From Akkermansia muciniphila (GTDB lineage Bacteria; Verrucomicrobiota; Verrucomicrobiia; Limisphaerales; SIAT01), in NCBI GenBank assembly GCA_945900775.1, contig CAMDJP010000008.1:5296-69295 (forward strand): 64,000 nt of DNA, in the 5' to 3' direction. The notes under the pieces were generated by a model. The model was not told the origin of the DNA. It did not search any database and saw nothing but the letters and a program-made list of their open reading frames with translations. The translations under genes were made by a program, and so were the position numbers. This document shows, one piece after another, positions 16,172 to 40,073 of the stretch. Numbering within the stretch: the first letter of the stretch is position 1; every line of letters begins with the position of its first letter.

Positions 16172-16213
16172 AGGTTTAAAAACACTCCCGCCCCCACCCG
16201 AAGCAGGACCGGT

Positions 16214-16827: not shown

Positions 16828-16858
16828 CACCTTAACCACCAGCCAACGAAATAGAAAT

Positions 16859-17950
16859 ATGTCTCAGGAATCCAAAAGCAACTCAGGAGTGAAAGATGCC
16901 GCTTGGCAGCCAGAACTCAGCGACGTCGAAGCGGTCAAAAAACTGAAGCAGGCCCGAGAGAGCATCACCTTGGAGTTGCGGAAAGCGATTGTCGGGATGG
17001 ACCAGGTCATTGACGAGCTCCTTATCGCAATCTTTTCCCGCGGTCATGCTTTGCTCGAAGGTGTGCCTGGATTGGCCAAGACGTTGCTGGTGAGTTCCAT
17101 CGCCAAGACGCTTTCGCTCACCTTCAAGCGCATCCAATTCACTCCCGACCTCATGCCGTCCGACATCACGGGCAGCGAGTTGCTGCAGGACGACCCGGTC
17201 ACCGGTGCCCGCCGTTTCATGTTCAGCAAGGGACCGATCTTCGCGAACATCGTGCTGGCCGACGAAATCAACCGAACCCCGCCCAAGACGCAGGCCGCAC
17301 TGCTGGAGGCCATGCAGGAGAAGATAGTTTCCGCGGGCGGCGAAGACTTTGAACTCGATCTGCCATTCTTCGTGCTCGCCACGCAGAACCCTCTCGAACA
17401 GGAGGGCACCTACGCACTTCCTGAGGCGCAGCTTGACCGCTTCATGTTCAAGATCCATGTCGGCTATCCGAGCCGCAAGGAGGAGATCAGCATCATGCGC
17501 AGTGTAACCGGCGGCAAGCGTTCGCCGCTCTCCCAGGTGCTCAGCAAAGCGGACATCCTCGCACTCCAGGATCTGGTTTCTCGCGTGCCGGTGGCCGATC
17601 ACATCTTCGAGTACGTGGCCACCTTGGTGCGGGCGACCCGCCCGTCGGAGGAGCAGTCCCCGGGGTTCATCAGGGACTTCGTCTCGTGGGGCTGCGGGCC
17701 GCGTGCCTGCCTGAATCTGATTACCGGTGCGAAAGCGCGCGCCATCCTGCACGGCCGTTTCAACGTGTCGGTGGAGGACGTCCAGGCTCTCGCTGTCCCT
17801 GTCCTGCGTCACCGCATGGGGCTCAACTTCGCCGCCCAGTCCGAAGGGGTGGATGCCGAGCACGTGGCTAACCGCCTGCTTAAGGAAATCCCCAGCGACG
17901 AATCGCTCTACAAGTGGAACCCGAACACTCCGGCAGCGGTTCGCGCCTGA
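16859..17950 (+). CDS. moxR: MoxR-family AAA+ ATPase
   Basis: 363 aa. Walker A-like LLEGVPGLAKT, Walker B VLADEINR, then FFVLATQNPLEQEGTYALPEAQLDRF, the hallmark MoxR/AAA_3 stretch. Confidence 0.93.
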   Translation: MSQESKSNSGVKDAAWQPELSDVEAVKKLKQARESITLELRKAIVGMDQVIDELLIAIFSRGHALLEGVPGLAKTLLVSSIAKTLSLTFKRIQFTPDLMPSDITGSELLQDDPVTGARRFMFSKGPIFANIVLADEINRTPPKTQAALLEAMQEKIVSAGGEDFELDLPFFVLATQNPLEQEGTYALPEAQLDRFMFKIHVGYPSRKEEISIMRSVTGGKRSPLSQVLSKADILALQDLVSRVPVADHIFEYVATLVRATRPSEEQSPGFIRDFVSWGCGPRACLNLITGAKARAILHGRFNVSVEDVQALAVPVLRHRMGLNFAAQSEGVDAEHVANRLLKEIPSDESLYKWNPNTPAAVRA

Positions 17951-18085
17951 GTGAAACCGAGTAATTCGCATGACAGCGTGGTGTTGACGCTACCGTTCTA
18001 CACCAAGCCCAGCGGACACTTTGCGTTCCGCGGCACATCGTCTGTCTCCGAATCCGCTCCGCTGCGATGCCTGACTCATTGAATC

Positions 18086-19057
18086 ATGGATTCTAAAACC
18101 GCTCCAGCCTCCGCCACTTCCGGCTCTTCGCGGACCGTTGTGGACCCGTCTAACCCACGGTCCAAGGCCCAGTACCTCGATCCGGCGATTCTCAGCCGCA
18201 TCGGTTCGCTCGAAGTGGTGGCTCGACAGGTGGTCGAGGGTTTTCGCATCGGCCATCACAAGAGCCCGGCGCGCGGTGTGAGCAGTGAATTCAACGCCTA
18301 TCGCCAGTACACGCAGGGCGACGAAACGCGCCACATTGACTGGAAGGCTTACGCGCGCTCCGACCGCTATTACGTAAAGCTCTTCGACGCGGAGACGAAC
18401 TTCGTCTGCAACTCCCTTATCGATGCCAGCAAGTCGATGACTTACTCGTCCGGGAAAATCTCGAAGATCGAGTATGCCAAGTATCTGGCTGCCAGCCTGT
18501 CGTATCTGGTGGTGGATCAGGGCGACTCCGCCGGGATGGCGATCTTCGACGGCAAGCTGCAGAAATACATCGAGCCGAAGGGCAGCAAGCGGGTGCTGCA
18601 GGACATGTCGAACGAGTTGGAGAAGGTCGTGCCGCAACCGCGCACGAACGTGGGAGCGATCCTCCACGACTTCGCCCACCGCATGAAGCGGCGCGGATTC
18701 GTGATGATCTTCTCGGACCTGTTCGACAACACCGACGAATTCATCGCCGGCCTCAACCATCTTCGCTTCGGCGGGCACAACGTGGTGCTTTTCCACATCC
18801 TCGATCCCTACGAGATCGAGTTCCCGCTCGCCGGCATGTGGAAATTCCTCGGACTTGAGGGTGAGGGCGAGGTCATCACCCAGCCGTCCCGCGTCCGCGC
18901 CAACTACCTCAAGGAACTCGAAGAGTTCGTCGGCAAAATCCGCAAGGCCTGCGGCAAGGCGCAGGTGGATTACGTGCTGGTCAACACGGCTCAGCCCGTC
19001 GAGCAGACCATCTCCAGCTATCTCCTCCAGCGCACCGCGCTGGCGAACGCCCGCTGA
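18086..19057 (+). CDS. DUF58 protein (vWA-like MoxR partner)
   Basis: 323 aa. The DUF58 signature reads EFNAYRQYTQGDETRHIDWKAYARSDRYYVKLF, followed by a vWA-like LIDASKSMTY. This is the position and size typical for the gene following moxR. Confidence 0.9.
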   Translation: MDSKTAPASATSGSSRTVVDPSNPRSKAQYLDPAILSRIGSLEVVARQVVEGFRIGHHKSPARGVSSEFNAYRQYTQGDETRHIDWKAYARSDRYYVKLFDAETNFVCNSLIDASKSMTYSSGKISKIEYAKYLAASLSYLVVDQGDSAGMAIFDGKLQKYIEPKGSKRVLQDMSNELEKVVPQPRTNVGAILHDFAHRMKRRGFVMIFSDLFDNTDEFIAGLNHLRFGGHNVVLFHILDPYEIEFPLAGMWKFLGLEGEGEVITQPSRVRANYLKELEEFVGKIRKACGKAQVDYVLVNTAQPVEQTISSYLLQRTALANAR

Positions 19058-20919
19058 TGATTTTCCGCCCGAACAAACCGGCTCTCGCCCTGGCTCTCGC
19101 CGCTCTCGCGTTGGGACTGCCGGTGCGGGCTGCGGACGAGGTGAGTTCGGCCAATCATCCGGTCTTGAAGCGCGCCCTCGCGGAGCATCCCACGGCGGAC
19201 GCCGATGCCAATGGCACCCTCTCGCTGGCGGAATACGGCATCTTGCAAAAGAAGCCGCTGGTGCAGCCGCCCGCCGAGAAAGACAAGCCGCCGGTCGCAC
19301 CCTTGCTGCCTCTCCTGCCCGTCCTGTCGAACGGCGAAGTGGTCGTGTCCGAGTTTGAAGAACCCAACTCGTACAAAGCGGCGGGCTGGATCAACGAAGG
19401 CACCGCCTTTCAGGGCGACCTCGCCCAAGGCACCCGCCTGATGAGACGCCGGGTCGGGCCTTTTCATGGAGCGGTTTTTCTTACCACTCACGGCAAATCC
19501 GAGTCTGAGATTGGTCGCCTTGTCTCGCCCCCTTTCCGGCTCGAACTCGATTTTATCGTCGTCACCATGAGCGGCGGCAGGATTCCCCAGCGGGTCGGCG
19601 TGAACCTGTGGATCGGCGACGAGATAGTCCGCAGCGCCACGGGAAACAACGACGACAACTTCGAAACGGTCGCCCTGGACGTGCGCGAATTTCGCGGGCG
19701 CATGGCCCGAGTGGAACTCCTCGACCAGCACCGCGGCATCTGGGGGCACCTCAACGTGGATCGCATTGTCCTCACCACCAACTCCGGCGAGGCCCGCCGC
19801 ATCGACTCGCGCCCGCCTCCTCCGGCGACGCTCCCCGGACTTGCCCTCACCACGACCGGGCGACAGGCCGGCCCTCTCGCGGTCACTGGCGGGCAACTCA
19901 CCTCAGCCAAGACGCCGCTCGTGGCCGGGACCATTCTGCTGGCTCTCAACGCGCAGGAATCCTCGGCTGAGCCGGCACCCAACACCCCGCCACCCAGCGC
20001 CGTGCAGTTGATCAGCGGAGAAATCTGGCATGCACAGATTGTGGGCTTGGAGGGAAAAGCCCTGCTCATCAATAGCCCGCTCATCGGCCCGCGCAAGCTG
20101 CCCTTCGAAAGTCTCGCCAGCATCGAATTTCAATACGCCGATCCCTACGCTCCGCGCGAACCCGGCCATCTCTACCGCACCGGCGCCGAACCGATTCCCG
20201 GCACGCTAGTCTGGGTGCGCGACAAAGACATCGCCGTGAACTGCCCGCTTGGCGTGATTCCCGTGGACCGCCTGGCTGTCGAACGTTACGTCCTCGCCAC
20301 GCCCAAACCGGCGGAACCCTCTGGCGCGGATGTTGTCGGGCTTGTGGGTGGCGGACTGCTGCGGGGAAAGACGGCCTTTGCCGGAAACCAGATCGTTGTG
20401 ACCCACGCCATTCTCGGCGAACTGAAACTGGACTGGCAAACTGTCGCCTACCTGCGCCGCGCCGCACCCGGTGTGGACTGGCTGGAGGACCTAGCGATGA
20501 CGGTGGAGGAACGCCCCGCGCTCTCCTTGCCGCCACCGATGCCGCAATGGATCGAGGGCGACGTTGACAGCCACCTGCGCGCGCTCCGCATCATGCCAGA
20601 GAGCGTGGTCCGCTTTGCCCTGAAAACCAAAGCCGGAGGCAAAGGCCGGGTGCGTGCGGAAATCACCACCGTGCGGGGCTGCCGGGCCGCGATGAAAGTC
20701 ACCATTCTAGCGGGCGATACCGCCATCTGGAACCAGACCATCCCCGCGGGTGGCGCGCCGGTTCCGCTTTCCCTCGAACTCTCCGCCGCCACGCAACTCA
20801 CCATCAAGGTAGAGTTCGCCGGTCCTCTCTCTTTTCCCAGCGGAATCGAACTGCGCGATCCGTTGGTGATGAACCTCACGCAACTCGCAACCCAGACGCA
20901 ACCCACCCAACCGGACTGA
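19057..20919 (+). CDS. Secreted protein with canonical EF-hand loop, lectin/jelly-roll-like module and beta-rich C-terminal region
   Basis: 620 aa with signal peptide MIFRPNKPALALALAALALGLPVRA. The 12-residue loop DADANGTLSLAE (19198-19233) fits the EF-hand consensus. The segment ...GWINEGTAFQGD...LDFIVVTMSGG...VNLWIGDEIVRSATGNNDDNFETVALDVREFRGRMARVELLDQHRGIWGHLNVDRIVL looks like a concanavalin/LamG-type module. The start overlaps the DUF58 stop by 1 nt (TGATG). Confidence 0.7.
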   Translation: MIFRPNKPALALALAALALGLPVRAADEVSSANHPVLKRALAEHPTADADANGTLSLAEYGILQKKPLVQPPAEKDKPPVAPLLPLLPVLSNGEVVVSEFEEPNSYKAAGWINEGTAFQGDLAQGTRLMRRRVGPFHGAVFLTTHGKSESEIGRLVSPPFRLELDFIVVTMSGGRIPQRVGVNLWIGDEIVRSATGNNDDNFETVALDVREFRGRMARVELLDQHRGIWGHLNVDRIVLTTNSGEARRIDSRPPPPATLPGLALTTTGRQAGPLAVTGGQLTSAKTPLVAGTILLALNAQESSAEPAPNTPPPSAVQLISGEIWHAQIVGLEGKALLINSPLIGPRKLPFESLASIEFQYADPYAPREPGHLYRTGAEPIPGTLVWVRDKDIAVNCPLGVIPVDRLAVERYVLATPKPAEPSGADVVGLVGGGLLRGKTAFAGNQIVVTHAILGELKLDWQTVAYLRRAAPGVDWLEDLAMTVEERPALSLPPPMPQWIEGDVDSHLRALRIMPESVVRFALKTKAGGKGRVRAEITTVRGCRAAMKVTILAGDTAIWNQTIPAGGAPVPLSLELSAATQLTIKVEFAGPLSFPSGIELRDPLVMNLTQLATQTQPTQPD

Positions 20920-20923
20920 ACTG

Positions 20924-23131
20924 ATGGGCTCACTGAATTCATTTGCCCTTTGGGGCGCACTTGGCCTGGCCGGAGTCGCCGTCCCAATCATCATCCACCT
21001 GCTTTATCGGAAGCACCGCAAGGAAACCGACTGGGCCGCCATGGAGCTGCTGCGTCGCGCGCTGGTCATTCGTTCCGGGCAGGTGAAGCTCGAGGATTAC
21101 CTGATTCTCTTTCTACGCTGCCTCGCGCTCGCCCTTCTGGCGTTCGCTCTCCTGCGGCCCATCATGAATGCGGCGGCGGACAGTTTGCTTGGTGAAAAGA
21201 AGGTCGGGATGATCATCGGCATCGACGCCTCGCTCAGCATGGGGCACGGCGAGAACTCGCGGTTCGAGCGTGCCCTCGAAAAGGCCGGCCAGATCGTCAA
21301 GACCGCGCGGGAAGGCAATCCCATCACCATCGTCCTGATGAGCGACCGTCCCAAGGTGCTGGTGCGCGGCGCAGGCTACGTCCCCGCGCAGGTCGCGGAA
21401 CTTCTCAAGTCCAAGGCCGCCGTCACACCCTACGGCCTCGGCCTCGAACGCAATCTCGAACTGCTCAACGAACTGGTCGGGGAAATTAAAACGCCCGGCA
21501 AGGAAGTCTTTCTCGTGAGCGACTCGCAGGAACTCGATTGGATGAATCTTTCCTCAACCGCCCGCGCCTCCTTCGAGCGGCTCACCAAGAGCGCCAGCGT
21601 GTATGCGATTCCGAGCGGCTTGGACGGCGAGGAAAACTTCACTCTGGAACGCCTCTCCTATTCGTCCGGATCACTGCGCCAAGCGGGCGTCGCGCGTTTT
21701 ACGGCCGAGGTGCGCAATACCGGGCGCCGCGCGGCCGATGCCGGTTCGGTGGAGTTCTTTGTCGGCAACGAACTCAGCAAACGCCTCGCCGTCGGATCGC
21801 TGCAACCCGGCGAGGTCCGTGGCCTTTCCTTCTTCGCGACGTTCGACAAACCCGGTGACATCTCACTCAAGGCCCAGCTCACCTCAGACGATCTCGCGGC
21901 CGACAACGTCCGGCACGCCGTCGCCCGCATCAGTTCGGGCGTTCGCGTTCTCTGCGTCGAGGGCGCCTCGAGTGGCCTGAACAAGGCCGACCGCACCGGC
22001 GGCTACTACGCCGTCCGCGCTCTGCGCCTCAAAGGCCGTGGGGACGACAGCCCGATTAAGGTCAACCAAATCGAAGCTCCTGATCTCGCCATCGAACAGC
22101 TTGGTGACTACGACGTGATCGTGCTCGCCAACGTCCCCGATCCTTCTGCGGAAACGGTGGGTCGCCTCCGGAAATTCGTGCAGCGCGGCGGTGGCCTGAT
22201 CGTCTTTGCCGGCGACCGCGTAGATGCTGATCAATACAACGATCGCTTCGGCAAGGGTGCCGACGCACTACTGCCGGCCACCATCGGCAAAGTCGCGAGC
22301 TACAGCGGCGAAGCGACCGGCTGGGGCATCGGGCCTGTAAAATCTGATCACCTCTTGGGCGGAGTGGTCTCTCGTCTGCCCCAGAAGCTGCTAGACAGCG
22401 CGCGCTTCACCAAGCTCATCGCCGTCGAACCGGTGTCGGGCAGCGAAACGATTCTCTCGGTTGCGGAGACCAATGCCCCCCTCCTACTAGCTCGCGACTT
22501 CGGCTCGGGAACGGTGCTCCTTTTCACCACCTCTGCGGACCGAACCTGGAGCGAACTTCCAGTCCACCCGCTTTACACCATGCTCTTGCAGCAGGCCGTC
22601 ACCCAGCTGACCAGCCGGCCTGACGCCGCGCAGTTCATCGTGGGCGGAGACGCCCCGCTTCCCGTGGTCGGCCGTCAATTGGGCGAAAACGTCGCGTTGA
22701 CCAAGCCCGGCGGCGAAGCCTCCACCATTCGCGTCACGCAGAACCGCGACCAACCGGTGGCGGCGGTCGAGTTCAATCAACCCGGCATCTACCAGATCGC
22801 GGCGGATGGGCAAAAGCCCGGCGTGGTGGTGGCTGCCAACGTGGACGCGCGGGAATCCGACGTGAAGGTACTCGGCGCCGGCGCTCTCGAGAATCTCCTC
22901 GGCTCAATCGGCGTCACCGTGCTCGGCAAGGACGGCGACCTCGCAGCCATCATCGAGAAGAACCGGCGCGGCAGCGAAATCACGCAACTCCTGCTCTGGC
23001 TCGCCATCGGAGTCTTCCTCCTCCAAAGCATTCTGGCCCGATACTTCACCAACAAAATCTCGCGCGACGAGGTCCCGGACCTCAGCGCCGCCCTGCAAAG
23101 CAGCAGGGTCGCCGCGGCTCGACGGTCCTGA
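20924..23131 (+). CDS. BatA_N (aerotolerance-regulator N-terminal) membrane protein with vWA-like and GATase1-like domains
   Basis: 735 aa. The N-terminus FALWGALGLAGVAVPIIIHLLYRK matches the BatA_N pattern. MIDAS-like IIGIDASLSMG is present. A ThuA/GATase1-like segment reads VRVLCVEG...YDVIVLANVP...GGGLIVFAGD. There is a C-terminal TM helix. Confidence 0.85.
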   Translation: MGSLNSFALWGALGLAGVAVPIIIHLLYRKHRKETDWAAMELLRRALVIRSGQVKLEDYLILFLRCLALALLAFALLRPIMNAAADSLLGEKKVGMIIGIDASLSMGHGENSRFERALEKAGQIVKTAREGNPITIVLMSDRPKVLVRGAGYVPAQVAELLKSKAAVTPYGLGLERNLELLNELVGEIKTPGKEVFLVSDSQELDWMNLSSTARASFERLTKSASVYAIPSGLDGEENFTLERLSYSSGSLRQAGVARFTAEVRNTGRRAADAGSVEFFVGNELSKRLAVGSLQPGEVRGLSFFATFDKPGDISLKAQLTSDDLAADNVRHAVARISSGVRVLCVEGASSGLNKADRTGGYYAVRALRLKGRGDDSPIKVNQIEAPDLAIEQLGDYDVIVLANVPDPSAETVGRLRKFVQRGGGLIVFAGDRVDADQYNDRFGKGADALLPATIGKVASYSGEATGWGIGPVKSDHLLGGVVSRLPQKLLDSARFTKLIAVEPVSGSETILSVAETNAPLLLARDFGSGTVLLFTTSADRTWSELPVHPLYTMLLQQAVTQLTSRPDAAQFIVGGDAPLPVVGRQLGENVALTKPGGEASTIRVTQNRDQPVAAVEFNQPGIYQIAADGQKPGVVVAANVDARESDVKVLGAGALENLLGSIGVTVLGKDGDLAAIIEKNRRGSEITQLLLWLAIGVFLLQSILARYFTNKISRDEVPDLSAALQSSRVAAARRS

Positions 23132-23150
23132 GTCACAACCACCGAATTCC

Positions 23151-25529: not shown

Positions 25530-25538
25530 CACTGACTG

Positions 25539-28918: not shown

Positions 28919-29973
28919 AACAGTATCCACTCACCAAAATCCTCGTCGCAATCTTGGCGGCTGTGGTTTTCATCGCCGCCCCCGTCCAGTCGGTCCGGGC
29001 GCAGAGCCAAGAAGCCGGCGAGCAAATCGTGGGCGTGGCGCGCCTAACCCCGGAAGTCCGTGCCGCGATTACCAAGGGCTTGGATTATCTCGCCAAGGAG
29101 GGTGTGCAGAAAGCCGATGGGAGCTGGGGCAGTGGACAGAATGACGTGGCGGAGACGTCGCTCGGTCTCATGGCTTTTATGCTGAAAGGCTATGTTCCGG
29201 GCCGCGGTGGTCGTTACGGCGTAGTCATGGAAAACGCCGTCACCTATCTCATCAACAAAGGCAAGAGCCAGCGGGGATTCTTGGGGACTCCCAATAATCA
29301 CGCCGGCATGTATGAGCACGGTTTGGCTGTCCTTGCCCTGTCCGAAGCGTGGGGCCAAAGTAAGAATCCGGCCGTGGGTGTCGCCCTGCGCGCCGGCGTG
29401 GACATCATTCTCCGAGCCCAAAGCACCCTCGGTGGCTGGCGCTACTCGCCCGAGCCGTCGGACGCGGATCTTTCGATGACTGTCATGCAATTGGTGGCGC
29501 TCAATTCCGCACATGAGTCCGGTATCCAAGTTCCTACCGCCACCATTGAAAAGGCGGTCAAATACGTGATCTCCTGCCAGGAAGAGGGCAGTGGTGGGTT
29601 CCGCTATATGCCAGGGAGCGGCGAGGTTGGTTTCGCGCGCACCGCCGCCGGGGTGATGTCCCTCATTATGACGGGTCAACGCAACCACAAGTCTACCCAG
29701 CGCGGACTGGCTTTCCTGAAAGCCTACCCGAACAAGAAGTTTGAGAAAGGCTACCCTCGATTCCACTACGCTCACTACTATGCCATTCAGGCGATTTATC
29801 AGTCGGGCGAAACGGACTTTCAAAATTGGTATCCTAAAATCGCCACCACCGTTGTCTCCATGCAAGAGCAGGACGGGAGCTGGAGTGGGGAAGGCGGCAA
29901 AGCCTATGCCACAGGGGCCTCAATCCTCATTATCGGCGTGCCCTACCGCTTCCTGCCTATCTACCAGCGTTAG
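28915..29973 (+). CDS. Secreted prenyltransferase/squalene-cyclase-repeat (alpha/alpha-toroid) protein
   Basis: 352 aa with signal peptide ILVAILAAVVFIAAPVQSVRAQ. Terpenoid-cyclase-type repeats recur: DGSWGSG, LGGWRYSP, SGGFRYMP, DGSWSGEGG. It is too short for a true squalene-hopene cyclase and has no DxDD motif. The ATGA overlaps the upstream stop. Confidence 0.8.
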   Translation: MKQYPLTKILVAILAAVVFIAAPVQSVRAQSQEAGEQIVGVARLTPEVRAAITKGLDYLAKEGVQKADGSWGSGQNDVAETSLGLMAFMLKGYVPGRGGRYGVVMENAVTYLINKGKSQRGFLGTPNNHAGMYEHGLAVLALSEAWGQSKNPAVGVALRAGVDIILRAQSTLGGWRYSPEPSDADLSMTVMQLVALNSAHESGIQVPTATIEKAVKYVISCQEEGSGGFRYMPGSGEVGFARTAAGVMSLIMTGQRNHKSTQRGLAFLKAYPNKKFEKGYPRFHYAHYYAIQAIYQSGETDFQNWYPKIATTVVSMQEQDGSWSGEGGKAYATGASILIIGVPYRFLPIYQR

Positions 29974-30099
29974 CGTTGCGCGCCAGGCGATTGCCTGTAG
30001 CACCGAATACGTACTAATGACCATCCCATTTACCATTCGATGTCTGTCAAAGCGCAAGTCCTAGCCAGCGGATCATTTCTGTTGCGGCACAATTTCCTG

Positions 30100-32037: not shown

Positions 32038-35000
32038 GCGCGCGGGGTCATCTACTCGTTCTCCTCTCGGTTTTGTCAGGGACGCTCGCCGCCCTGGCGG
32101 AGCCGCCCCCCAAGGACCCGCGGTGGGAGCAGGCGCAGAAGGCTTACAACGAAGGTTTCTCCGACGAAGGGCACCGGCTTCTCAAAGCCCTCATCGCCGA
32201 CCACCCCGGCGATGTCGATCTGGCCGCGGCCTGCTACGAGAAGATTTTTGACCAGGAATATCGGATCCTCCCAAAACATGTGCCGATCAAAACTCAGGGC
32301 CAGCCCATGCACAGTCACTGGCATGCCACCGCCCACTACACGGGGGTCAACTCCAATATGCAGATTCCGCCCGCTGTGGAACGCATCCTGGCGCTCGAGC
32401 GGCTCGGCGCGCTTTCAGCCCATACGGCTTTCCTCCGCACGGTCGGCGGCGCCTGCCTCGAGGGCGGCCTCAACCGGCGCGCCTATCTGGAACTGGGCCA
32501 GATGCTCACCCGCCTGAGAAGCGAAAACCCTCGCGACCCATTCTGGCTGATAATGGAAGCGCACGCGCTCAGCATCATGATGCGCCCCGAAGCCGGGAAG
32601 CTCCTCAATGAACTCCGGAAGCGTATCGATCTCGATCATACCGACGATGGCCTTCGCAGCGACTGGATGGTGGCCGACGCTCTTCTCTCACACGGCATGG
32701 CACAACCCGTCATGGCAAAGCCTGCCGTGCCGGAGGGAAGTCCGCTCCCTGCGCTGGCGCCTGTCAATCCCGACGATCCGGAGGATCCCTGGCGCAAGGT
32801 GTTGGATCGCTCCCCGAAAGATATTCCCGGCGAGGTGGACCGACTCATCGCGCTCGCCACGGCTTCCCGGGATTTATTGATGTGGGTGAATACGGATGGC
32901 GGCGGACTGCTTCCCACCCGCGCGCTTGATCTCCACCTGCTCAGCAAACCCTCCGCCGAACTCGAAGCGCTGCGCAAGCTGCAGGAAACACTCGTTTCCC
33001 CCGAAGCGCAGGCCGCCGCCCGCACCGAGGCGGACATCCTCAAATTGACCCGCCGCTACCCCTGGGCGCGCTCCGGTCAGGTGCTCCTGCTGAAAATCGC
33101 CAACGAGGCCCTCTGGAACGCGCGCTTCGAGTCTGCATGGCGCAGCTTTCACGAAGTGCTCCTCCACACCTCCGACCCCGCGCTCCGCGAAGCCGCGCAA
33201 GTCGGCACCTGGACCGCCCAAGGCCTTTCCGGCGGAGCGGCGGAAGTGCTCGCGCAACCCACCGCCTTTGAGCCCGCCAAGACCTACCCGTGGATGGGAC
33301 GCCCGACCAAGGGTTCGGAAATTCGCGCCGCCCTGCAGGCCATGGTCCCGCCCGTGCCGACGGTCGTCGCTCCCGCGCTCAAGGATGTCCGCCCGCATGT
33401 CGTGCATCTCCCGCCGGTGTCTCCGTGGGTGATCAACGCCCACGCTGAGGGGGGCTATTCCATCGATCTCCAGGTGGCCGGCAAGACACTGCTCGCCACC
33501 GGGCGCAACCTCATCGCCGCCTACGATGCCGCCAAGCCCGGCACCCCGCTCTGGACTCACGCGCAGCAGTTCCCCAGTGAGAAGAATAATCGCTCACCTT
33601 TCCCCGGCTATTACCGCGGTCTCATCAAGGACGGGGCCATGATTACCCGCTTGGGCCAGCACGAGCTGCCGAACGGTCTGGCCGCTTTCAGCCTCGCCAC
33701 CGGCGATCCATTGTGGACGTCGCTCAATGCCGTCGCGAACGGCTTCAGCGGGGAATATCTCAACCATGCCCACCCCATCCCGCTCGGCGATCCGGTCCAG
33801 GCCGACGGCAGACTGTTTTACCTGCAAACGACCGTAACCAGCGGACGGGCTGACGGTCGCCCCGTGTTCAGCCTCGTCTGCTTCGACCCCGCTACCGCAC
33901 AGCCCAGTTGGGCGACCCCGATCATCGACTCCAAAGTGGACGTGGGGAACCTCCAGCACAACTCCTCATTCACCTACGGCAACGCCGTCACCGTCCATCG
34001 TGGCGCGGTTTACAGTTGCTCAAACGTCGGGCACATCGCCCGATCCGACGTGCGCGACGGTCGCGTCGAATGGGCTCACAAGTATGCATACCGCGGCGGC
34101 GACAATGGTGGGCGTGTCGGCAGCAGCCCCGTCATCGCCGGCAGTAATGTCATCTTCCTGCCCCGCAACGCGGAACGCCTCATCGCCCTCGACCAGCGCA
34201 CCGGCGCTCTCGCATGGGAAAATGTCATGTTTCGCGCCTTCGAAGTGCTCGGCCTCTGGCAGGACACCCTCGTCGTGCGCGGGCCCAACCATCTCGCGGG
34301 GCTCGATGTCGCCACCGGGAACGCCCGCTGGCATCGGAGCCTGACCCAGCGCGCCTTCAACCGCGGCCAGCTCATCGCCGATTCCGTTTACCTCGGGCAG
34401 CCCGACGCCCTGCAGCGGCTCGACGCCCGCACCGGCGAGCTGATCGAAAGCCGGCCCTGGGCGCTCCAGCCCGAGCGCGCCCTCAGTTTTACCATCTCCG
34501 GCCAGGACCTCTACATCGCCACGGACCAGCCCCGCGAAGACCCCCGCCAAAAAGTGGGCCAGCCTCCCGGCCCGGAAGTGGCCTCGTCCGCGCAACCGCT
34601 CAAGCTGCCCCTCAAGCGTGCCTGGTCGCTCATGCGCCCGGGTGCCTCCCTCCTGCTCCCGCCCGCCGGAGTCAACCCCGGCACGGCCGTTCTCCTTGGC
34701 GACGGCATGATCGAGTGCCTCGAAGTCAACGAACGTGGTGGCACCCGCTGGCGTCGCTTCCTTGATCTCAAGACCAACCAGCTCCTCGTCCGCTTCATTG
34801 GCAAGAACGGAGAGATACTCATGCTCATGGAACAGGGCGAGTCCCCTGACAATCCCCCGCGTGCCCTCGGCATCGACACCAAGACCGGCGCGACCCTCTG
34901 GCAGACGACCGTCCCTCCCTGGCGCGACCCACCACCCTCCTTTTGTGGCACCGTGATGATCTTCGCCAGCCACGCCCACCACTTGGGCGGCGGGGCAATG

Positions 35001-35807
35001 GCCATCGACCTCACCACGGGAAAACAACTTTGGCGGCGCTACCTTCGCAGCTCCTCCCCTCCGGTAGCCAAAGGGGACGAATCTCGTTTGCTGCTTCTCG
35101 GCAACCTTTGGACGCCGAAACCCTCCCGTGTGACCCTCAACGCGCAGACCGGCCAGACCATCGCGGATTCCCCGGAAAAATCCGCATTACTACCCATGCT
35201 TTTCACCGTCCACGGCAACAGGGCCCCCGGCGTTTATCTCCTCCCTCCGGTGGGAGACCCAACGGTCTTCCAGCCACAGGCCGTCATTGCGGACCATGTC
35301 GGCGGGACTGGCGCTCCCTACTACCTCATCCGGCCCCGCGACGGCACTGACAAGACCCCCGAGGGCGTCTATCGCGCCGACGACCCATCCTACTTCTACA
35401 GAATCCCGAGCGCTGACGTCCTGTTCGATGGCGACTACGCCATCACCATGCAGGGCAAACTCGCGGTCACCGACCTCAAAGCCAAACGCCTCTTGCCGCT
35501 CCCTGCGACGGACGAAAAGGCGGCCATCAACCAACCGGGACTTCTCTGCCGCATCGGCCCCGATCGTTTGCTCAAAATCATCGGCAGAGGCGACGGGAAG
35601 AATCTCGTCTTCACCATTGATCTCCCGGGCGGGACAGTGACCGAGGGGGTCCTCGAAAATCCCGGTCAGGTCGAGGCATTCGCCAATGCGCACTACTTCA
35701 ACCCCGACGCCAACCCCCATCATGTCCGGCCGTTTCTTCCGACTTTCGACCGCGTTTTCCTGACCTACGACAACACCACCGTCACCGCCTGGGTCGCGGC
35801 TCCCTAG
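32034..35807 (+). CDS. Exported 1257-aa helical-solenoid + PQQ-like beta-propeller protein (paralog 1)
   Basis: The ATG at 32034 overlaps the HEAT gene stop (ATGA) and gives the signal-like MSARGHLLVLLSVLSGTLAALA. About 450 aa of helical/TPR-like sequence is followed by repeated BamB/PQQ-like blades (e.g. LIALDQRTGALAWEN, LAGLDVATGNARWHRSL, LQRLDARTGELIESRPW). A conserved C-terminal domain ends ...TAWVAAP. Confidence 0.8.
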   Translation: MSARGHLLVLLSVLSGTLAALAEPPPKDPRWEQAQKAYNEGFSDEGHRLLKALIADHPGDVDLAAACYEKIFDQEYRILPKHVPIKTQGQPMHSHWHATAHYTGVNSNMQIPPAVERILALERLGALSAHTAFLRTVGGACLEGGLNRRAYLELGQMLTRLRSENPRDPFWLIMEAHALSIMMRPEAGKLLNELRKRIDLDHTDDGLRSDWMVADALLSHGMAQPVMAKPAVPEGSPLPALAPVNPDDPEDPWRKVLDRSPKDIPGEVDRLIALATASRDLLMWVNTDGGGLLPTRALDLHLLSKPSAELEALRKLQETLVSPEAQAAARTEADILKLTRRYPWARSGQVLLLKIANEALWNARFESAWRSFHEVLLHTSDPALREAAQVGTWTAQGLSGGAAEVLAQPTAFEPAKTYPWMGRPTKGSEIRAALQAMVPPVPTVVAPALKDVRPHVVHLPPVSPWVINAHAEGGYSIDLQVAGKTLLATGRNLIAAYDAAKPGTPLWTHAQQFPSEKNNRSPFPGYYRGLIKDGAMITRLGQHELPNGLAAFSLATGDPLWTSLNAVANGFSGEYLNHAHPIPLGDPVQADGRLFYLQTTVTSGRADGRPVFSLVCFDPATAQPSWATPIIDSKVDVGNLQHNSSFTYGNAVTVHRGAVYSCSNVGHIARSDVRDGRVEWAHKYAYRGGDNGGRVGSSPVIAGSNVIFLPRNAERLIALDQRTGALAWENVMFRAFEVLGLWQDTLVVRGPNHLAGLDVATGNARWHRSLTQRAFNRGQLIADSVYLGQPDALQRLDARTGELIESRPWALQPERALSFTISGQDLYIATDQPREDPRQKVGQPPGPEVASSAQPLKLPLKRAWSLMRPGASLLLPPAGVNPGTAVLLGDGMIECLEVNERGGTRWRRFLDLKTNQLLVRFIGKNGEILMLMEQGESPDNPPRALGIDTKTGATLWQTTVPPWRDPPPSFCGTVMIFASHAHHLGGGAMAIDLTTGKQLWRRYLRSSSPPVAKGDESRLLLLGNLWTPKPSRVTLNAQTGQTIADSPEKSALLPMLFTVHGNRAPGVYLLPPVGDPTVFQPQAVIADHVGGTGAPYYLIRPRDGTDKTPEGVYRADDPSYFYRIPSADVLFDGDYAITMQGKLAVTDLKAKRLLPLPATDEKAAINQPGLLCRIGPDRLLKIIGRGDGKNLVFTIDLPGGTVTEGVLENPGQVEAFANAHYFNPDANPHHVRPFLPTFDRVFLTYDNTTVTAWVAAP

Positions 35808-35811
35808 CAGC

Positions 35812-38800
35812 ATGAAACGTCCGATCCTGATTCTCACCGCCCTTTTCCTCGGAGCGCTCGTTGCGTCTGCGGCCCCGCCCGCCGACGACCCCCGCTGGGC
35901 AGCCGCGCTCGAGGCTTACGCGAAGGGCCAGCGTGAAGTGGGGCACCGTCTCCTCTCCGCCCTTGCCGCGCAGCATCCCGGCGATCTCGACCTGGCCGCG
36001 GCGTGCTACGAGAAAATTCTCAAGAACGTAAATCTCCCCTCCCCGAAAGCTCCAACGACCACCGACAACCCCTGGATTACCTTCGCCACGGAACGCCTGC
36101 TCGCCCTCGAACGCCTCGGCGCCCACTCTGCGAACACAGATCTCATCCGTTCCGCCGCCTCCGTCGAGAGTCGGCTCGCTGTCGCCAGGAGTCGTTTCCT
36201 TGATGCGTTCGAGACAATCTCCCGGCTGCGCGCCGAAAATGACCATGACCTTTTCTGGCGCATGACGGAGGTCATCATCCTCCGCAGTATGGGGCTGCCC
36301 GAAGCCGACGCACTAATCGCCGAACTCAAGCAGGACTACGATCCCGACCATTCCGACCCCGACAAGCGCGCCCAGTGGGAATGGATCGCCGCGGAAATCA
36401 CCACGCCTCACAGTCCTCCACTAGTCGCCCGTCCGGCGTGGACTCGGCAGCTCGTGCGCCTGCCCGTCGCCAAACCTGCTCCTCCCGAAGGCAGTCCGAT
36501 CAGCCTGCTTTCACCCGACGATCCTGATGACCGCTGGCGCGTCGTCACCGATCCCTCTCCAAGAGGAGGTGCCGGCGCCGTGGATCGCTTCCTCGGCTAC
36601 ACCTACGCCCTCGCCGAGGGCGTGCCGTGGCGTGCCGGTCCCGGTTTGCTCGATTCCAACCGGGCGCTCAACCTGCACCTGCTCAGCAAACCTGCCGCCG
36701 AACTCGAAGCCCTGCGCCAAGAGCAGGAAGCGCAATTCGTCCGTGAAGCACAGACCGCAGCCCGCACCGAGACGGGCGTCCTAAAAGTAACCCGGCGCTA
36801 CCCGTGGTCGCGATCGGCCCAGACGCTCCTGCTGAAGTTCGCCAGCGAGGCACTCTGGGACGGCCGCTTCGAATCCGCCTGGCGCAGCTTTCACGATGTG
36901 CTCCTCTACGCCTCTGATCCCGCGCTCCGCGAGGCCGCCCAGATCGGCATTTGGACTGCCCGCGCCCTCTCCGGCGGAGCGGCGGAAGTGCTCGCGCAAC
37001 CCGCCGCCTTCGAGCCCGGCAAGACCTACCCGTGGATGGGGCGGCCGACCAAAGGCGCAGAAATTCGCGCCGCGCTCCAGGCCACACTTCGGTCCGTGCC
37101 GCCGGTCGCAGCGCCGTCGCTCAGCGCTGTTCGCCCGCATGTCCTGAACCTTCCGCCGGTGGCTCCGTGGCCGTCGGGTGAGTCTTCGGCGGGCTTTGGC
37201 GTCGATCTCCAAGTGGCCGGCAACAGAGTCGTGGCCAGCGCGCGCAATGTTATCGCCGCCTACGACGTCGCCAAACCCGGCGCCCCGTTGTGGGTCCATT
37301 TACGGCACCGCGCCGCCGCCAACCCCCAGAACTACTGGTCAGGCTACTACCGCTGCCTCATCGAGGACGGCACGCTTTTCTCACGCTGGAGCGTGACCGA
37401 ACTGCCCAGCGGTCTGGCCGCCTTTGATCTCGCCAGCGGCGATCCGCTTTGGACTGCTCTAAGTGAAAACCCGTGGAACGATCGTCGCGGAGTGCAGACT
37501 CCGGGTTCCAACGCTCGAAAAAGGCAGCCGCTGCGTTTCTCGGTGCCCATGGGCGACCCGGTTCGAGCGGATGGCCTTCTCTTTTACCTGCAATGGGATT
37601 CCGCGCATGATCTCCACGCCAAACAAGGCACACACCTGAACCTCGTTTGTTTCGACCCGGGCACCGGTCAACCTCGCTGGACGACCTCGCTCACCGATCA
37701 CCGATTTGCGGGAGATTTCCGCGGGCCCACCACCGCCATCTACGGCAACTCCGTCACGGTCCATCGCGGAGCGGTTTACAGTTGCAACAACTCCGGCCAG
37801 ATCTTCCGCTCCGACGTGCGTGACGGCCGCATCGAATGGGCCCATAACTATCGCCGCCACCCCACGAGCGCGGAGTTTCTCGGCAGCGCCCCCATCGTCG
37901 CCGGCAGCAGTGTCATCTTTCTGCCCCGCGATTCGGGAGTCGCCGTCGCGCTTGATCAGCGCACCGGCTTTCTCGTCTGGGAAAATCCCTTGATCCGCGG
38001 CGCCGAGGCCCTCGGCATTTGGCAGAACACCCTCGTGGTACGCGGTGTCGCCATTCTCGCTGGGCTTGATCTCGCGACGGGCAAGACTCGCTGGTCCCGG
38101 AATCTGACGGGGCGCACCCTCGACCGCTCCCAGCTCATCGCGGACTCCATCTACCTCGGCGGAGGCGATGCCCTCGTGCGGTTCGACGCCCGCACCGGCG
38201 AACTGCTCGAAAGCCGCCCTTGGGCGCTCCAATCGGAACGGGCCCTCACTTTCACTTTCTCCGGTCAGGATCTTTACATCGTAACGGACCGGCCCGCCGA
38301 CGACCCTCGCCAAAAAGTGGGCCAGCCCCTCGGACCAGAACTGGCCTCGGCTGCAGCCCCGCTCAAGCTGCCCATGCAGCGTGCGTGGTCGCTCTCGCGT
38401 CCCGACGCCACTTTCGCGCTGCCGCCCGCGGGCGTCAGCGCTGGCAGCGCCTACGTCTTCAGCGACGGTCTCATCGAGTGCCTCGATGTGAACCAGCGCG
38501 GCACCATCCGCTGGCGCCGCTTCCTCAATCTCACCAGCCCCACTTTGTTCTTCGCCGGCGACACGCTCATCCTGCGCGAAAGAGAAGTCCAACATCTCCC
38601 GTCCGCCCGCGTGCTCGCCCTCGATTCCAAGACCGGAGTGACGCTCTGGGAAGCGCCCGTGCCCATCAACCACCAGCACGCTTTCCACTTCGGCAGCCGC
38701 ATACTTTTCCACGACGGACGCGAAAAATTCGTCGCCCTCGACCTCGCCAGCGGTCAGCGGGCCTGGCAAACCACGCTGGTCACGGCGAATACCCAGAATC

Positions 38801-40038
38801 CGCACTGGGACGGCACGCGCCTGCATCTTTTCCGCGCTCCCGCCACGGGCAATCTCGAGCACTTTACCCTCGACCCTGCCACGGGCGACACGGTCGCGCA
38901 TCGAGAGGTTGACGCGAAGCCGCCAGGTGAACCTGCCACAGCCATTCGCCAGCTTGAAGACGGCACCTACGAAATCCGTTTCGCACCCACCTCGGCCCGG
39001 CATTTTCGCGTGACCACGCTCTCCAGCTCCGGCGGTGTGGGTGACTATGCTTCTGCTGCGGAGTTTTATCTGCTCGGCCCAGATGGTCAGCGCCTGCCGC
39101 GCGACCGGTGGATCGCGACCGGCGATCACGAACCCAACGCCGGCAACAGAGCGCAGCCCCGAAATGCTATTGATGGAAATCCGAATTCATGGTGGCACTC
39201 CCAGTGGATGAGTGGCCAGACGCCGCACCCGCACTACTTCATCATCGACCTCGGCGTCGCCCAGACCATTAGCGGTTTTCAATACCTGCCGGCGAAGATT
39301 ATCAACAACAACGGGCTGATCGCCGATTACGAACTCCACGTGAGCCAGAACAACAAGGCATGGGGCGCGCCGGTATCGAAGGGATGTTTTTCCGAGAACG
39401 TCAGGGTCAGGACTTCCGAGATTGCGACTTCCGTCCCCGCCTTCTTCGAGGTGCGCCGCCAGTTGCGAGGGGGACTCCAGTCCATCTATCGCTACGACCT
39501 CGCGGGCAAGGGCAGCCTCGTGAACGAAATCGGCAGCATCCTGCGCGTAGCCGAGCCTTACAGTCTCATTGGCGGCCGCCAAAAAATCGACAGCCCGGAT
39601 ATGCTGACCTTCCGTCGCGCCGACGACCCTTCCTACGTTTTCCCGTTCCCGCTCCCGAACGACCGGGTAGGCCACCTCCAATTCGACGGCGACTACGCCA
39701 TTACCCAGCAGGGCAAACTCGAAATCATCGACTTGAAATCGAAACGCCAACTGCCACTCCCCACCGACGAAAAAGCGCTCATCCACCAGGCGGGATTCCT
39801 TTGTCGCATCGGCCCCGATCGTTTACTCAAAATCGTCAACCGCGACGGGAAGCATTTCGCCGTCACCATCGACCTCAAGAGCGGGACAGTCACCGAGGGC
39901 ATTCTCGAGAATCAGGGCGAGCCAATCACCATGAGCCGCTTTCTCCAGCCCGGCGGCAAATCCCGCTATCTCACCTTCGACCGCACCTTCCTCTCCTACG
40001 ACAACACCACGCTCACCGCTTGGGTCACCGCGCCATAG
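35812..40038 (+). CDS. Exported 1408-aa helical-solenoid + PQQ-like beta-propeller protein with inserted F5/8 type C (discoidin) domain (paralog 2)
   Basis: Signal-like MKRPILILTALFLGALVASAA. It is collinear with paralog 1, with long stretches of high amino-acid identity. The extra segment ...YEIRFAPTSARHFRVTTLSS...AIDGNPNSWWHSQW...PHYFIIDLGVAQTISGFQYLP...IADYELHVSQNNKAWG is a discoidin-type domain. The protein ends ...TAWVTAP. Confidence 0.85.
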   Translation: MKRPILILTALFLGALVASAAPPADDPRWAAALEAYAKGQREVGHRLLSALAAQHPGDLDLAAACYEKILKNVNLPSPKAPTTTDNPWITFATERLLALERLGAHSANTDLIRSAASVESRLAVARSRFLDAFETISRLRAENDHDLFWRMTEVIILRSMGLPEADALIAELKQDYDPDHSDPDKRAQWEWIAAEITTPHSPPLVARPAWTRQLVRLPVAKPAPPEGSPISLLSPDDPDDRWRVVTDPSPRGGAGAVDRFLGYTYALAEGVPWRAGPGLLDSNRALNLHLLSKPAAELEALRQEQEAQFVREAQTAARTETGVLKVTRRYPWSRSAQTLLLKFASEALWDGRFESAWRSFHDVLLYASDPALREAAQIGIWTARALSGGAAEVLAQPAAFEPGKTYPWMGRPTKGAEIRAALQATLRSVPPVAAPSLSAVRPHVLNLPPVAPWPSGESSAGFGVDLQVAGNRVVASARNVIAAYDVAKPGAPLWVHLRHRAAANPQNYWSGYYRCLIEDGTLFSRWSVTELPSGLAAFDLASGDPLWTALSENPWNDRRGVQTPGSNARKRQPLRFSVPMGDPVRADGLLFYLQWDSAHDLHAKQGTHLNLVCFDPGTGQPRWTTSLTDHRFAGDFRGPTTAIYGNSVTVHRGAVYSCNNSGQIFRSDVRDGRIEWAHNYRRHPTSAEFLGSAPIVAGSSVIFLPRDSGVAVALDQRTGFLVWENPLIRGAEALGIWQNTLVVRGVAILAGLDLATGKTRWSRNLTGRTLDRSQLIADSIYLGGGDALVRFDARTGELLESRPWALQSERALTFTFSGQDLYIVTDRPADDPRQKVGQPLGPELASAAAPLKLPMQRAWSLSRPDATFALPPAGVSAGSAYVFSDGLIECLDVNQRGTIRWRRFLNLTSPTLFFAGDTLILREREVQHLPSARVLALDSKTGVTLWEAPVPINHQHAFHFGSRILFHDGREKFVALDLASGQRAWQTTLVTANTQNPHWDGTRLHLFRAPATGNLEHFTLDPATGDTVAHREVDAKPPGEPATAIRQLEDGTYEIRFAPTSARHFRVTTLSSSGGVGDYASAAEFYLLGPDGQRLPRDRWIATGDHEPNAGNRAQPRNAIDGNPNSWWHSQWMSGQTPHPHYFIIDLGVAQTISGFQYLPAKIINNNGLIADYELHVSQNNKAWGAPVSKGCFSENVRVRTSEIATSVPAFFEVRRQLRGGLQSIYRYDLAGKGSLVNEIGSILRVAEPYSLIGGRQKIDSPDMLTFRRADDPSYVFPFPLPNDRVGHLQFDGDYAITQQGKLEIIDLKSKRQLPLPTDEKALIHQAGFLCRIGPDRLLKIVNRDGKHFAVTIDLKSGTVTEGILENQGEPITMSRFLQPGGKSRYLTFDRTFLSYDNTTLTAWVTAP

Positions 40039-40053
40039 AGTTGGAGAGAAACA

Positions 40054-40073
40054 CAACAATTGGAAAATTGTTG
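40054..40073 (+). terminator. Candidate hairpin after the last gene of the 23-kb operon
   Basis: CAACAATT-GGAA-AATTGTTG is a perfect 8-bp stem with a 4-nt loop, lying 16 nt after the stop at 40038. The stem is AT-rich with no clear U-tract, so this is only a weak terminator candidate. Confidence 0.3.

Follow-up and report, generated by a model that had tools for sequence, protein, structure and literature searches.

A conserved MoxR–DUF58–vWA gene cluster with exported toroid, HEAT-repeat and propeller proteins in Verrucomicrobiota, Planctomycetota and allied lineages

The closest described relatives of the gene cluster analysed here are the Bat loci of Bacteroides and the spirochaetes (moxR, a DUF58 gene and batA to batE), for which a periplasmic complex has been proposed and whose function is not known (PMC3557215, PMC5700661). 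A second relative is RL3499–RL3502 of Rhizobium leguminosarum, an operon whose leading gene encodes an MRP-subfamily MoxR and which has been linked to cell morphology and to the integrity of the membrane (PMC3893208); mutation of RL3499 or of RL3500 impairs growth on complex medium (PMC5118466). Elsewhere, in the pairs RavA–ViaA, CoxD–CoxE and NorQ–NorD, a MoxR ATPase and a cofactor with a von Willebrand factor type A (vWA) domain and metal-ion-dependent adhesion site (MIDAS) mature or remodel a dedicated target complex (PMC3893208), and the phenotypes of MoxR/DUF58/BatA-type operons extend from aerotolerance to envelope integrity to none (PMC3893208, PMC3557215). Here we describe eleven same-strand open reading frames (ORFs), g1 to g11 (Table 1), that span 16859–40038 (~23 kb) on the plus strand of a 64,000-nucleotide stretch labelled Akkermansia muciniphila (hereafter the window; GenBank assembly GCA_945900775.1, contig CAMDJP010000008.1, positions 5,296 to 69,295 of the forward strand). 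An earlier note on this DNA had listed the same eleven ORFs, all of which are there, as a candidate machine of the cell envelope. The observations set out below lead us, with moderate confidence, to regard the block as one conserved envelope module, namely a MoxR-serviced, inner-membrane-anchored periplasmic assembly rich in glycan-binding-type modules.

Central to this reading is the conservation of gene order in other organisms. Two sets of loci were compared, one comprising the best 80 of 294 loci anchored on g8 (one genome per species, 10 kb on each side; 82 loci were analysed), against which all eleven window proteins were run by tblastn, and the other the best 80 of at least 568 metagenome loci with g5 as the anchor, for which the lead was a sequence from Phycisphaerales. 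Each set is biased toward its lead sequence. Of 71 loci long enough to tell, 67 have g9 on the 3′ side of g8 and on its strand (64 of them at a distance of at most 700 nt). For a g11-type propeller gene 3′ of g8, the count is 44 of 50 on that strand, with a further 3 loci carrying it on the other strand. On the 5′ side of g8, g4, g5 and g6 are each present in 32/32 loci, and g3 and g7 in 31/32. The g5-anchored loci place MoxR, DUF58 and g4 5′ of g5 (25/26 for each) and g6 on its 3′ side (51/54). The earlier note had tied the distal genes (28915 onward) to moxR, and the two sets agree with it: the distal block is syntenic with MoxR/DUF58/vWA genes far beyond this genome, so the absence of synteny that the note had named as counter-evidence was not what we observed. 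Since the arrangement is kept in ~160 loci of other organisms, it goes beyond chance. Moreover, the identities of g8, g9, g11, g5 and g4 co-vary across loci (Spearman 0.80–0.95), as expected if these genes are inherited as one unit. When the longest ORFs of other lineages are taken, the median gap between g8 and g9 is 10 nt, and the median for g9 to g11 is an overlap.

The lineage labels of these loci cover Verrucomicrobiales/Roseibacillus/Akkermansiaceae, Opitutia/Puniceicoccaceae, Kiritimatiellia, Lentisphaerae and Planctomycetota, the last including Phycisphaerae, Tepidisphaerales and Brocadiia. It is the broad spread alone that is trustworthy here, because some taxon labels of the metagenome-assembled genomes (MAGs) are plainly wrong. 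Cluster records labelled Akkermansia muciniphila, Akkermansia sp., Anaerolineales, Euryarchaeota and Alphaproteobacteria were encountered as well (L007, L068, L082; P0030, P0105); these odd labels clash with gene content and with the identity gradient, and the contigs are therefore probably mis-binned or mis-labelled.

With respect to the encoded proteins, the domain assignments made in the earlier note (MoxR, DUF58, BatA_N/vWA, toroid, HEAT and propellers) hold on domain searches, and a hydrophobicity scan bears out its view that everything except MoxR and DUF58 is exported or membrane-bound, with an N-terminal hydrophobic segment, lipobox or transmembrane (TM) segment in each of g3–g11 and in neither g1 nor g2. 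The g1 protein belongs to the MoxR AAA+ ATPases (AAA_3, MRP-type), with an AAA_3 match at E = 5e-60 (201.6 bits against a cut-off of 27), an AAA_lid_2 match of 59.6 bits, and intact Walker A (GVPGLAKT) and Walker B (LADEINR) motifs. Its partner g2 is a DUF58 protein (E = 4e-41, 141 bits) with a weak VWA_2 match and the DxSxS-type motif DASKS. A further match of g1, to the bpMoxR model (E = 1.8e-12, 47.2 bits), together with the co-occurrence of MoxR, vWA and β-propeller proteins, is what a MoxR–vWA–β-propeller conflict (defence) system would offer. We disfavour that assignment as exceedingly improbable, given that AAA_3 outscores bpMoxR on g1 more than fourfold in bits, that the products contain no VMAP, iSTAND or effector domains (system definitions in PMC7159879), that the BamB/PQQ-type propellers belong to exported proteins, and that PADLOC returned nothing relevant. 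The style of conservation is also vertical and single-copy, and the composition of the block (G+C 0.58–0.65) is the same as that of its flanks.

The inner-membrane proteins g4 and g5 (~730–790 aa) are built on a common plan. In g4, a BatA_N/TIGR02226 double-TM anchor (BatA 47.3 bits, cut-off 25.9; TIGR02226 59.4 bits, cut-off 23.05) is followed by a MIDAS-vWA domain, a CARDB Ig-like domain, a DUF4350/DUF7408 (GATase1-like) domain, a C-terminal TM segment and a basic tail. The MIDAS residues D101, S103 and S105 are invariant across phyla, and conservation along the protein is highest in the basic loop that joins TM1 to TM2, in which W37, A39, M40, L42, L43, R44, A46, R50, E57 and D58 are invariant; a weak match to the BatB structure 3ibs was also obtained. 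The order in g5 is a double-TM anchor, a MIDAS-vWA domain with the motif DSSRS, a GATase1_like domain (DUF1355), an MG2-like Ig domain, a C-terminal TM segment and an RRKHNLV tail. Pfam misses this vWA domain, the evidence for which is the invariant DSSRS motif together with a profile match to 3ibs (BatB; E = 6.5e-5); further profile matches were to 4rck, 2gk3, 3soz and 3rht. Invariant in g5 are D94, S96 and S98, with blocks 364–406 and 559–613 almost invariant, and Y43, R53, R54 and the C-terminal tail are kept as well. Its GATase1_like domain is probably non-catalytic, as it has no invariant cysteine. The third protein, g6, matches DUF4175 (PF13779) at profile positions 205–329 of 825 (37.1 bits against a cut-off of 27.3) and runs from a conserved N-terminus through a TM hairpin, a ~75-aa segment predicted to be cytoplasmic and a third TM segment to a periplasmic Ig-like region. 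Its conserved residues fall in the N-terminus and in the segment between TM2 and TM3, with K12, L13, A16, R22, G28, W80, L94, E97, S124, A135, F144 and E146 invariant.

Given the basic TM1–TM2 loop and the basic tail past the last TM segment, the 600–700-residue middle of g4 and g5 is placed in the periplasm. Experiments on BB0173, a related protein of Borrelia, established the same topology, with the protein in the inner membrane and its vWA domain in the periplasm (PMC5700661). On this arrangement, the short conserved cytoplasmic elements of g4, g5 and g6 would be the sole possible contact points for MoxR and DUF58.

Turning to the exported proteins, g3 combines a signal peptide and a single EF-hand loop (DADANGTLSLAE) with a string of β-sandwich domains resembling carbohydrate-binding modules (CBMs). 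No Pfam family was found for it, and its orthologues gave one NPCBM match and one EF-hand match. The first sandwich shares 35% identity with an additional domain carried by Streptomyces proteins of glycoside hydrolase family 32 (GH32). An AlphaFold2 (AF2) model, predicted with database homologues and with a predicted local distance difference test (pLDDT) score of 75.8, has a helix-loop-helix around the canonical EF-hand loop followed by several β-sandwiches, and Foldseek matches it to reelin repeats, CBM51, BcsB and CBM6, that is, to tandem carbohydrate-binding-type modules. The EF-hand/lectin-like character that the earlier note had read from g3 is thus borne out.

The description of g6 and g7 as a DUF4175-like pair is likewise sustained: g6 scores above the cut-off, and 6/14 orthologues of g7 match DUF4175 (best E = 6.2e-18), although the g7 of the window gives no match. 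On these grounds, g6 and g7 look like a split DUF4175 protein. The g7 protein ends in a Gly-X repeat linker, encoded by repeats that read (GEGA)n(GEGT)n(GQ)n(GK)n, and then in a conserved tail (...RRNRSAAIQNYIQQLPPEFRQQVAEYFETLAE) resembling that of a DUF4175 protein. This tract has a practical consequence. A contig starts less than 600 nt 5′ of g8 in 31/82 related loci (e.g. L011–L048), and most such contig ends read open straight into a g7 tract of (GA)n/(GQ)n type; the tract, located within the first 100–500 nt of such loci, is a systematic breakpoint of short-read assembly that splits the cluster in MAGs. Because assemblies break there, a protein search returned 13 relatives of g7 alone. 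We had considered g7 a narrow, lineage-specific protein on the basis of those 13 database matches and rejected the idea, since it has orthologues in all lineages that diverge fast and are cut by assemblies. The protein is consequently under-represented in databases, and the cluster is often found split in MAGs.

The g8 protein has a signal peptide and matches the SQHop_cyclase and Prenyltrans toroid families of Pfam. Its conservation is the third highest in the cluster after MoxR and DUF58 (49–89% identity across phyla, mean column identity 62%), and 11/12 residues of its C-terminus, GVPYR(F/Y)LPIYQR, are invariant. The AF2 model (pLDDT 88.7) is a single-domain (α/α)6 toroid, whose best matches in the PDB reach a template-modelling score of only ~0.6 and differ widely in function: single-domain squalene-hopene-type cyclases, GH76 mannanases, sugar epimerases, RabGGT-β and the TEP1 thioester domain. 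A role as class II terpene cyclase or prenyltransferase β subunit was considered and rejected: the fold fits, but there is no DxDD motif (the nearest is SDADLS) and the matches to enzyme models are partial, repeat-level matches (28.8 against a cut-off of 322.7 for TIGR01787, and 18.2 against 431 for hopene cyclase). No catalytic residues are assignable in g8. The wider family comprises 4,420 clusters at E <= 1e-30, mostly of 330–390 aa, and the orthologous subgroup alone sits in the gene cluster. Toroids of the g8 family were also seen inside giant proteins of 1100–2279 aa (P0165, P0176, P0177, P0184, P0190 and P0247).

The lipoprotein g9 carries an LLAGC lipobox and HEAT_2 repeats, and its C-terminal ~170 residues have no family match and are β-rich by eye. 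In g10 and g11, a PQQ_2 (BamB-type) propeller starts at about residue 450–535, behind a largely unassigned N-terminal region. The g11 protein adds a CBM32-type F5/8 type C (discoidin) domain past the propeller, then a C-terminal domain; F5/8C is absent from g10. Orthologues of g11 match PQQ_2 in 12/12 cases, F5/8C in 5/12 and the tetratricopeptide repeat (TPR) families TPR_14/TPR_16 weakly in at most 3/12, and structure matches were to BamB and to the CBM32 domains of sialidase and galactose oxidase. The two window copies are 50% identical over ~1075 aa, g10 being without the discoidin insert. A second copy is seen only in L004, L006, L007, L009 and L085; more distant loci have one, as does a relative at 69–84% identity (L001/L008). 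We take g10 to be a recent tandem duplicate of g11.

Overall, glycan-binding-type modules are found in g3 and g11, and possibly in g8, and we count them as support for the envelope module proposed above. They could also be read in a more specific way, as a functional variant of the same proposal: an apparatus for polysaccharide capture, uptake or processing in the enlarged periplasm of the Planctomycetes–Verrucomicrobia–Chlamydiae (PVC) bacteria, with the toroid as enzyme or binder and MoxR maturing or gating the membrane platform. The CBM-like jelly rolls of g3 and its domain common to GH32 enzymes, the discoidin domain of g11, and the likeness of g8 to GH76 mannanases and sugar epimerases all point in this direction, as do a distant cluster in which a PA14 protein is encoded distally and a glycoside hydrolase on the upstream side, and a report that Verrucomicrobiota store glycans in the periplasm (PMC13174399). 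Nonetheless, we find this variant unlikely. Inside the conserved block there is no transporter, TonB-dependent receptor, sulfatase or recognised glycoside hydrolase, the catalytic residues that an enzymatic toroid calls for cannot be assigned, and the cluster looks like a single housekeeping-type, vertically inherited locus across very different lifestyles, unlike substrate-specific utilisation loci.

From gene order, co-divergence, domain content and invariant motifs we infer a complex, its energy coupling and its ligand as follows. A MoxR hexamer and its vWA-like partner DUF58 would work in the cytoplasm, where they may act on the basic anchor loops and C-terminal tails of g4 and g5 and on the N-terminus and ~75-residue loop of g6. 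The periplasmic parts of g4, g5 and g6 would form a platform that draws its Ig-like domains from all three proteins and its MIDAS-vWA domains and non-catalytic GATase1-like domains from g4 and g5; g3, g7, g8, g9, g11 and the recent copy g10 would bind to this platform. By analogy with TolA and TonB, g7 with its flexible Gly-X spacer could span the periplasm as a tether. The platform would be assembled or remodelled at the expense of ATP, for instance through the switching or loading of MIDAS sites, and the lectin-type modules suggest a glycan polymer as ligand, either the cell wall or an exported or imported polysaccharide. The expected role would be in envelope organisation and integrity. Consistent with this, MoxR-subfamily operons elsewhere have envelope, morphology or stress phenotypes (PMC3893208; PMC3557215).

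Several points weigh against this proposal. The topologies come from hydrophobicity and the positive-inside rule only. MoxR and DUF58 would reach only a few dozen cytoplasmic residues, which makes energy coupling across the membrane a conjecture. The products include no outer-membrane barrel, g8 is without a close solved relative, and deletion of bat genes in Leptospira gave no phenotype (PMC3557215). The distal genes, finally, are not universally adjacent: one lineage (L087, L089 and L092) has g1–g6 followed by unrelated genes, the first of them on the opposite strand, distant clusters carry other proteins in place of g9 and the propeller, and in L001 an 81-aa fragment of a Y1 transposase (12771–13016, minus strand) lies between g8 and g9, the gap being widened to ~430 nt with g9 and g11 kept.

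Some of these irregularities are also what two neighbouring modules would leave, with g1–g8 as a self-contained system and g9–g11 as an independent periplasmic or outer-membrane unit, e.g. a BamB-like scaffold with a lectin domain, held near by vertical inheritance or shared regulation rather than by physical contact. The persistence of g9 and g11 beyond the opposite-strand transposase fragment in L001 fits such a division, and so does the 126-nt gap ahead of g9, the largest internal gap in the window bar that past moxR. The g9/propeller order is swapped in Kiritimatiellia loci, where the propeller gene precedes g9, and in 3 loci the propeller gene is on the opposite strand a few kb off; the distant clusters, moreover, keep g1–g8-like genes with g9 and the propeller in 0/11. 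On the other side, the proximity of g9 to g8 in 64/71 loci extends over five lineage labels, the median gap between them in other lineages is ~10 nt, the identities of g9 and g11 track those of g8 and g5 (rho 0.83–0.95), and a weak consensus scan gave no promoter-like match in the g8–g9 gap. The genes for g9 and the propeller were also always seen beside g8, an observation biased by the anchoring of the loci on g8 or g5. We entertain two separate modules tentatively, as the leading alternative, which carries less of our confidence than the single envelope module.

The same comparisons indicate how the single module may have been layered. Among loci whose g5 shares 35% identity or more with that of the window, 14/15 have g3, 9/12 have g8, 7/11 have g9 and 6/11 have the propeller, and the misses are mostly in the lineage that ends at g6. 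Where g5 is ~30% identical, g3 is found in 0/11, with g2 abutting g4, and g9 and the propeller each in 0/11; a g8-like toroid is present in 5/12. Two such distant clusters encode MoxR, DUF58, g4, g5, a DUF4175 piece, a 900–1113-aa protein of no family, a toroid and others, with a second toroid-like protein or a PA14 protein at the distal position. In terms of descent, these sequences point to g1, g2, g4, g5, g6, g7 and g8 as the older, wider core, and to g3, g9 and one propeller gene, found only in the closer loci, among which the labelled PVC genomes fall, as PVC-type additions, which would give an ancestral unit of ten genes. The earlier note had counted an eleven-gene unit; all eleven genes are present, but the ancestral count is ten, as g10 is a tandem copy confined to the closest relatives. 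Its picture of one block also needs qualification: the block is conserved, but it is layered, and in view of the lineage with g1–g6 only, the reordering in Kiritimatiellia and the strand switches, the distal genes are not obligatory neighbours of the core. One Kiritimatiellia locus (L050, 7684–10785) has g8, the propeller gene and g9, then extra g3-like and g7-like genes that may be a partial second set.

A bolder extension would make the cluster a signature machine of PVC bacteria, in which a cytoplasmic AAA+ motor controls, across the inner membrane, a periplasmic scaffold of g9, TPR-propeller-lectin, toroid and DUF4175-tether proteins that organises the PVC envelope. We judge this to be decidedly unlikely. 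If true, the scaffold could have a role in membrane invaginations, in the spacing of inner and outer membranes or in macromolecule uptake into the enlarged periplasm, and the machine would be an ATP-driven counterpart of the Tol/Ton-type envelope systems driven by the proton-motive force. Independent of this extension, the cluster gives MoxR operons a definite set of candidate partners in the periplasm, one that has been stable in evolution, so that the question of MoxR targets becomes one of concrete pairwise tests. For PVC biology, it adds a locus of ten genes and ~20 kb in which g3 and the g8 subgroup are novel families and which is common to Verrucomicrobiota, Kiritimatiellia, Lentisphaerae and Planctomycetota.

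The layout of the locus in the window is collected in Table 1; gene starts are approximate. The junctions and the two larger gaps given in the earlier note each match. Overlaps occur at TGATG (19055–19059), GTGA (27188–27191), ATGA (28915–28918) and ATGA (32034–32037), and the short gaps are 4 nt (20920–20923), 19 nt, 9 nt and 4 nt (35808–35811). The larger gaps measure 135 nt past moxR and, assuming that g9 starts at the ATG at 30100, 126 nt ahead of g9.

Table 1. Features of the cluster, with positions in the window
Feature	Position	Strand	Description
g1 MoxR	16859–17950	+	363 aa, cytoplasmic
g2 DUF58	18086–19057	+	323 aa, cytoplasmic, vWA-like
g3	19057–20919	+	620 aa, exported, no Pfam family
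g4	20924–23131	+	BatA_N/vWA inner-membrane protein
g5	23151–25529	+	vWA/GATase1_like inner-membrane protein
g6	25539–27191	+	membrane protein, DUF4175 N-terminal part
g7	27188–28918	+	exported long helical protein, DUF4175 C-terminal part
g8	28915–29973	+	352 aa, exported (α/α)6 toroid
g9	30100–32037	+	HEAT lipoprotein; ORF opens at 30040, start set at lipobox signal peptide MFPRLKLFLLAALLAGC
g10	32034–35807	+	1257 aa, exported propeller protein; ORF opens at 31968
g11	35812–40038	+	1408 aa, exported propeller protein
g7 repeat tract	28520–28678	+	tandem 12-nt and 6-nt repeats
Promoter match	16798–16827	+	sigma-70-like CTGACA-18-CATAGT, 9/12
Hairpin after g11	40054–40073	+	perfect 8-bp, AT-rich, 16 nt past stop

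The promoter match ends 32 nt ahead of the moxR start codon. It is one of two promoter-like plus-strand matches in 16000–35900, both of them 5′ of moxR, in a scan that gave 5 matches against 3.2 expected with a sigma-70-like consensus, from which PVC promoters may differ. This weak consensus scan returned no promoter-like match in either internal gap (135 nt, 126 nt). At the other end, the hairpin past the last stop that the earlier note had mentioned exists and reads CAACAATT-GGAA-AATTGTTG (folding z-score -1.6); being AT-rich and without a T run, it is not called as an intrinsic terminator. The moxR–DUF58 spacer (17951–18085) varies in relatives from an overlap to ~200 nt, with two outliers of more than 600 nt, and a structured RNA or attenuator in this gap was rejected given its variable length and the lack of an Rfam match.

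As the 5′ neighbours vary among genomes, moxR is the left border of the cluster. In the window, the region upstream includes, beyond a sodium/glutamate symporter gene, a gene for a VIT + vWA protein (12262–14586, minus strand), which is not a conserved neighbour, and one for a 1195-aa protein with a fervidolysin-prodomain-like end (8643–12230, minus strand). Downstream, after a 780-nt gap, 40818–43790 (plus strand) encodes an FG-GAP repeat protein and a cytochrome c protein. The right-hand neighbours also vary: L001 has a ThuA/DUF7133/cytochrome c protein instead (19597–21719), 110 nt past g11. Antisense ORFs of 362–556 aa at 16883–17971, 17990–19300 and 37459–39129 (all minus strand) look like a by-product of high G+C and not like genes.

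We next compare the cluster with described systems. The Akkermansia MUL1 locus (Amuc_0543–0550) was considered as a possible holder of MoxR/Bat-like genes, but no link between it and the cluster was established. MUL1 is described as similar to Sus systems and as lacking synteny in aquatic Akkermansiaceae (PMC13174399); the present cluster occurs in MAGs labelled aquatic Akkermansiaceae or Roseibacillus. The membrane-coat-like proteins of PVC bacteria are large and combine a β-propeller with helical repeats, one of them being located in the paryphoplasm of Gemmata (PMC2799638). Membership of g10 and g11 in that group was rejected by description, as its members have an N-terminal propeller and a C-terminal solenoid, an order that appears reversed here: the weak TPR matches lie N-terminal to the propeller, and a lectin domain follows it. 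The best family and PDB matches of the g10 and g11 propellers are of the BamB (YfgL), PQQ-like type; BamB, however, is a lipoprotein of ~390 aa, whereas g10 and g11 have 1257–1408 aa and score ~50 bits against an equivalog cut-off of 285. The conserved PVC module of Kamneva et al. 2012 is the DUF1501/PSCyt module and not the present cluster. A membrane-proximal three-gene operon of MoxR, vWA and YebA, reported by Zhang and Aravind 2012, also occurs in Lentisphaerae–Verrucomicrobia–Planctomycetes (PMC3495828). It is defined by an eight-TM protein with a cytoplasmic transglutaminase-like peptidase domain, a domain that no product of the present cluster contains.

The MoxR–vWA chaperone pairs differ in that their targets, cytoplasmic or membrane enzymes, lie on the ATPase side of the membrane. 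In the present cluster, a periplasmic location is predicted for the MIDAS-vWA domains of g4 and g5, which leaves DUF58 alone beside MoxR. Unlike in those pairs, no metalloenzyme client is evident in the cluster. RL3499–RL3502, the 'broadly conserved operon' of Vanderlinde et al. 2011, reportedly has the gene order MoxR, DUF58 and two membrane proteins, like g1, g2, g4 and g5. The likeness is one of description; the operon has just four genes and is not reported to encode a toroid, HEAT or propeller protein.

The Bat loci provide the nearest match. An AAA_3 MoxR and a DUF58 protein are common to both, and the BatA_N double-TM anchor with MIDAS-vWA and a second, BatB-like vWA membrane protein are also here as g4 and g5. 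Thus, of the features of a Bat-type or MoxR–DUF58–BatA locus, a DUF58 gene by moxR, a BatA_N–vWA protein and a second vWA protein are present, and BatD and TPR components are not: no cluster product gave a family match to BatD, and BatC/BatE-like TPR matches are weak and limited to at most 3/12 orthologues of the propeller protein. The Bat-type core named in the earlier note therefore stands for MoxR, DUF58 and BatA_N/vWA but is approximate as a whole. This shared core would also accommodate a periplasmic redox or aerotolerance system after the original Bacteroides proposal (summarised in PMC3557215), for which the cytochrome c genes downstream of the block in the window and in L001 could be cited. 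We consider such a function very improbable, given that these cytochrome genes are not conserved neighbours, that the eleven proteins contain no thioredoxin, cytochrome, flavin or other redox domain, that BatD was not found, that aerobic aquatic lineages are among the carriers and that the Leptospira bat deletion had no oxidative-stress phenotype (PMC3557215).

In keeping with the earlier note, which knew of no characterised system of this composition, literature searches on MoxR/DUF58/BatA operons and PVC taxa gave no description of the cluster. Relative to the Bat loci, g4 and g5 are enlarged by Ig-like and GATase1-like domains, and the DUF4175 pair, the toroid, the EF-hand/CBM protein, the HEAT lipoprotein and the giant propeller protein are not reported there (PMC5700661, PMC3557215). 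Taken together, these comparisons place the cluster best as an extended variant of the known Bat/RL3499–RL3502 operon type and not as a categorically new system.

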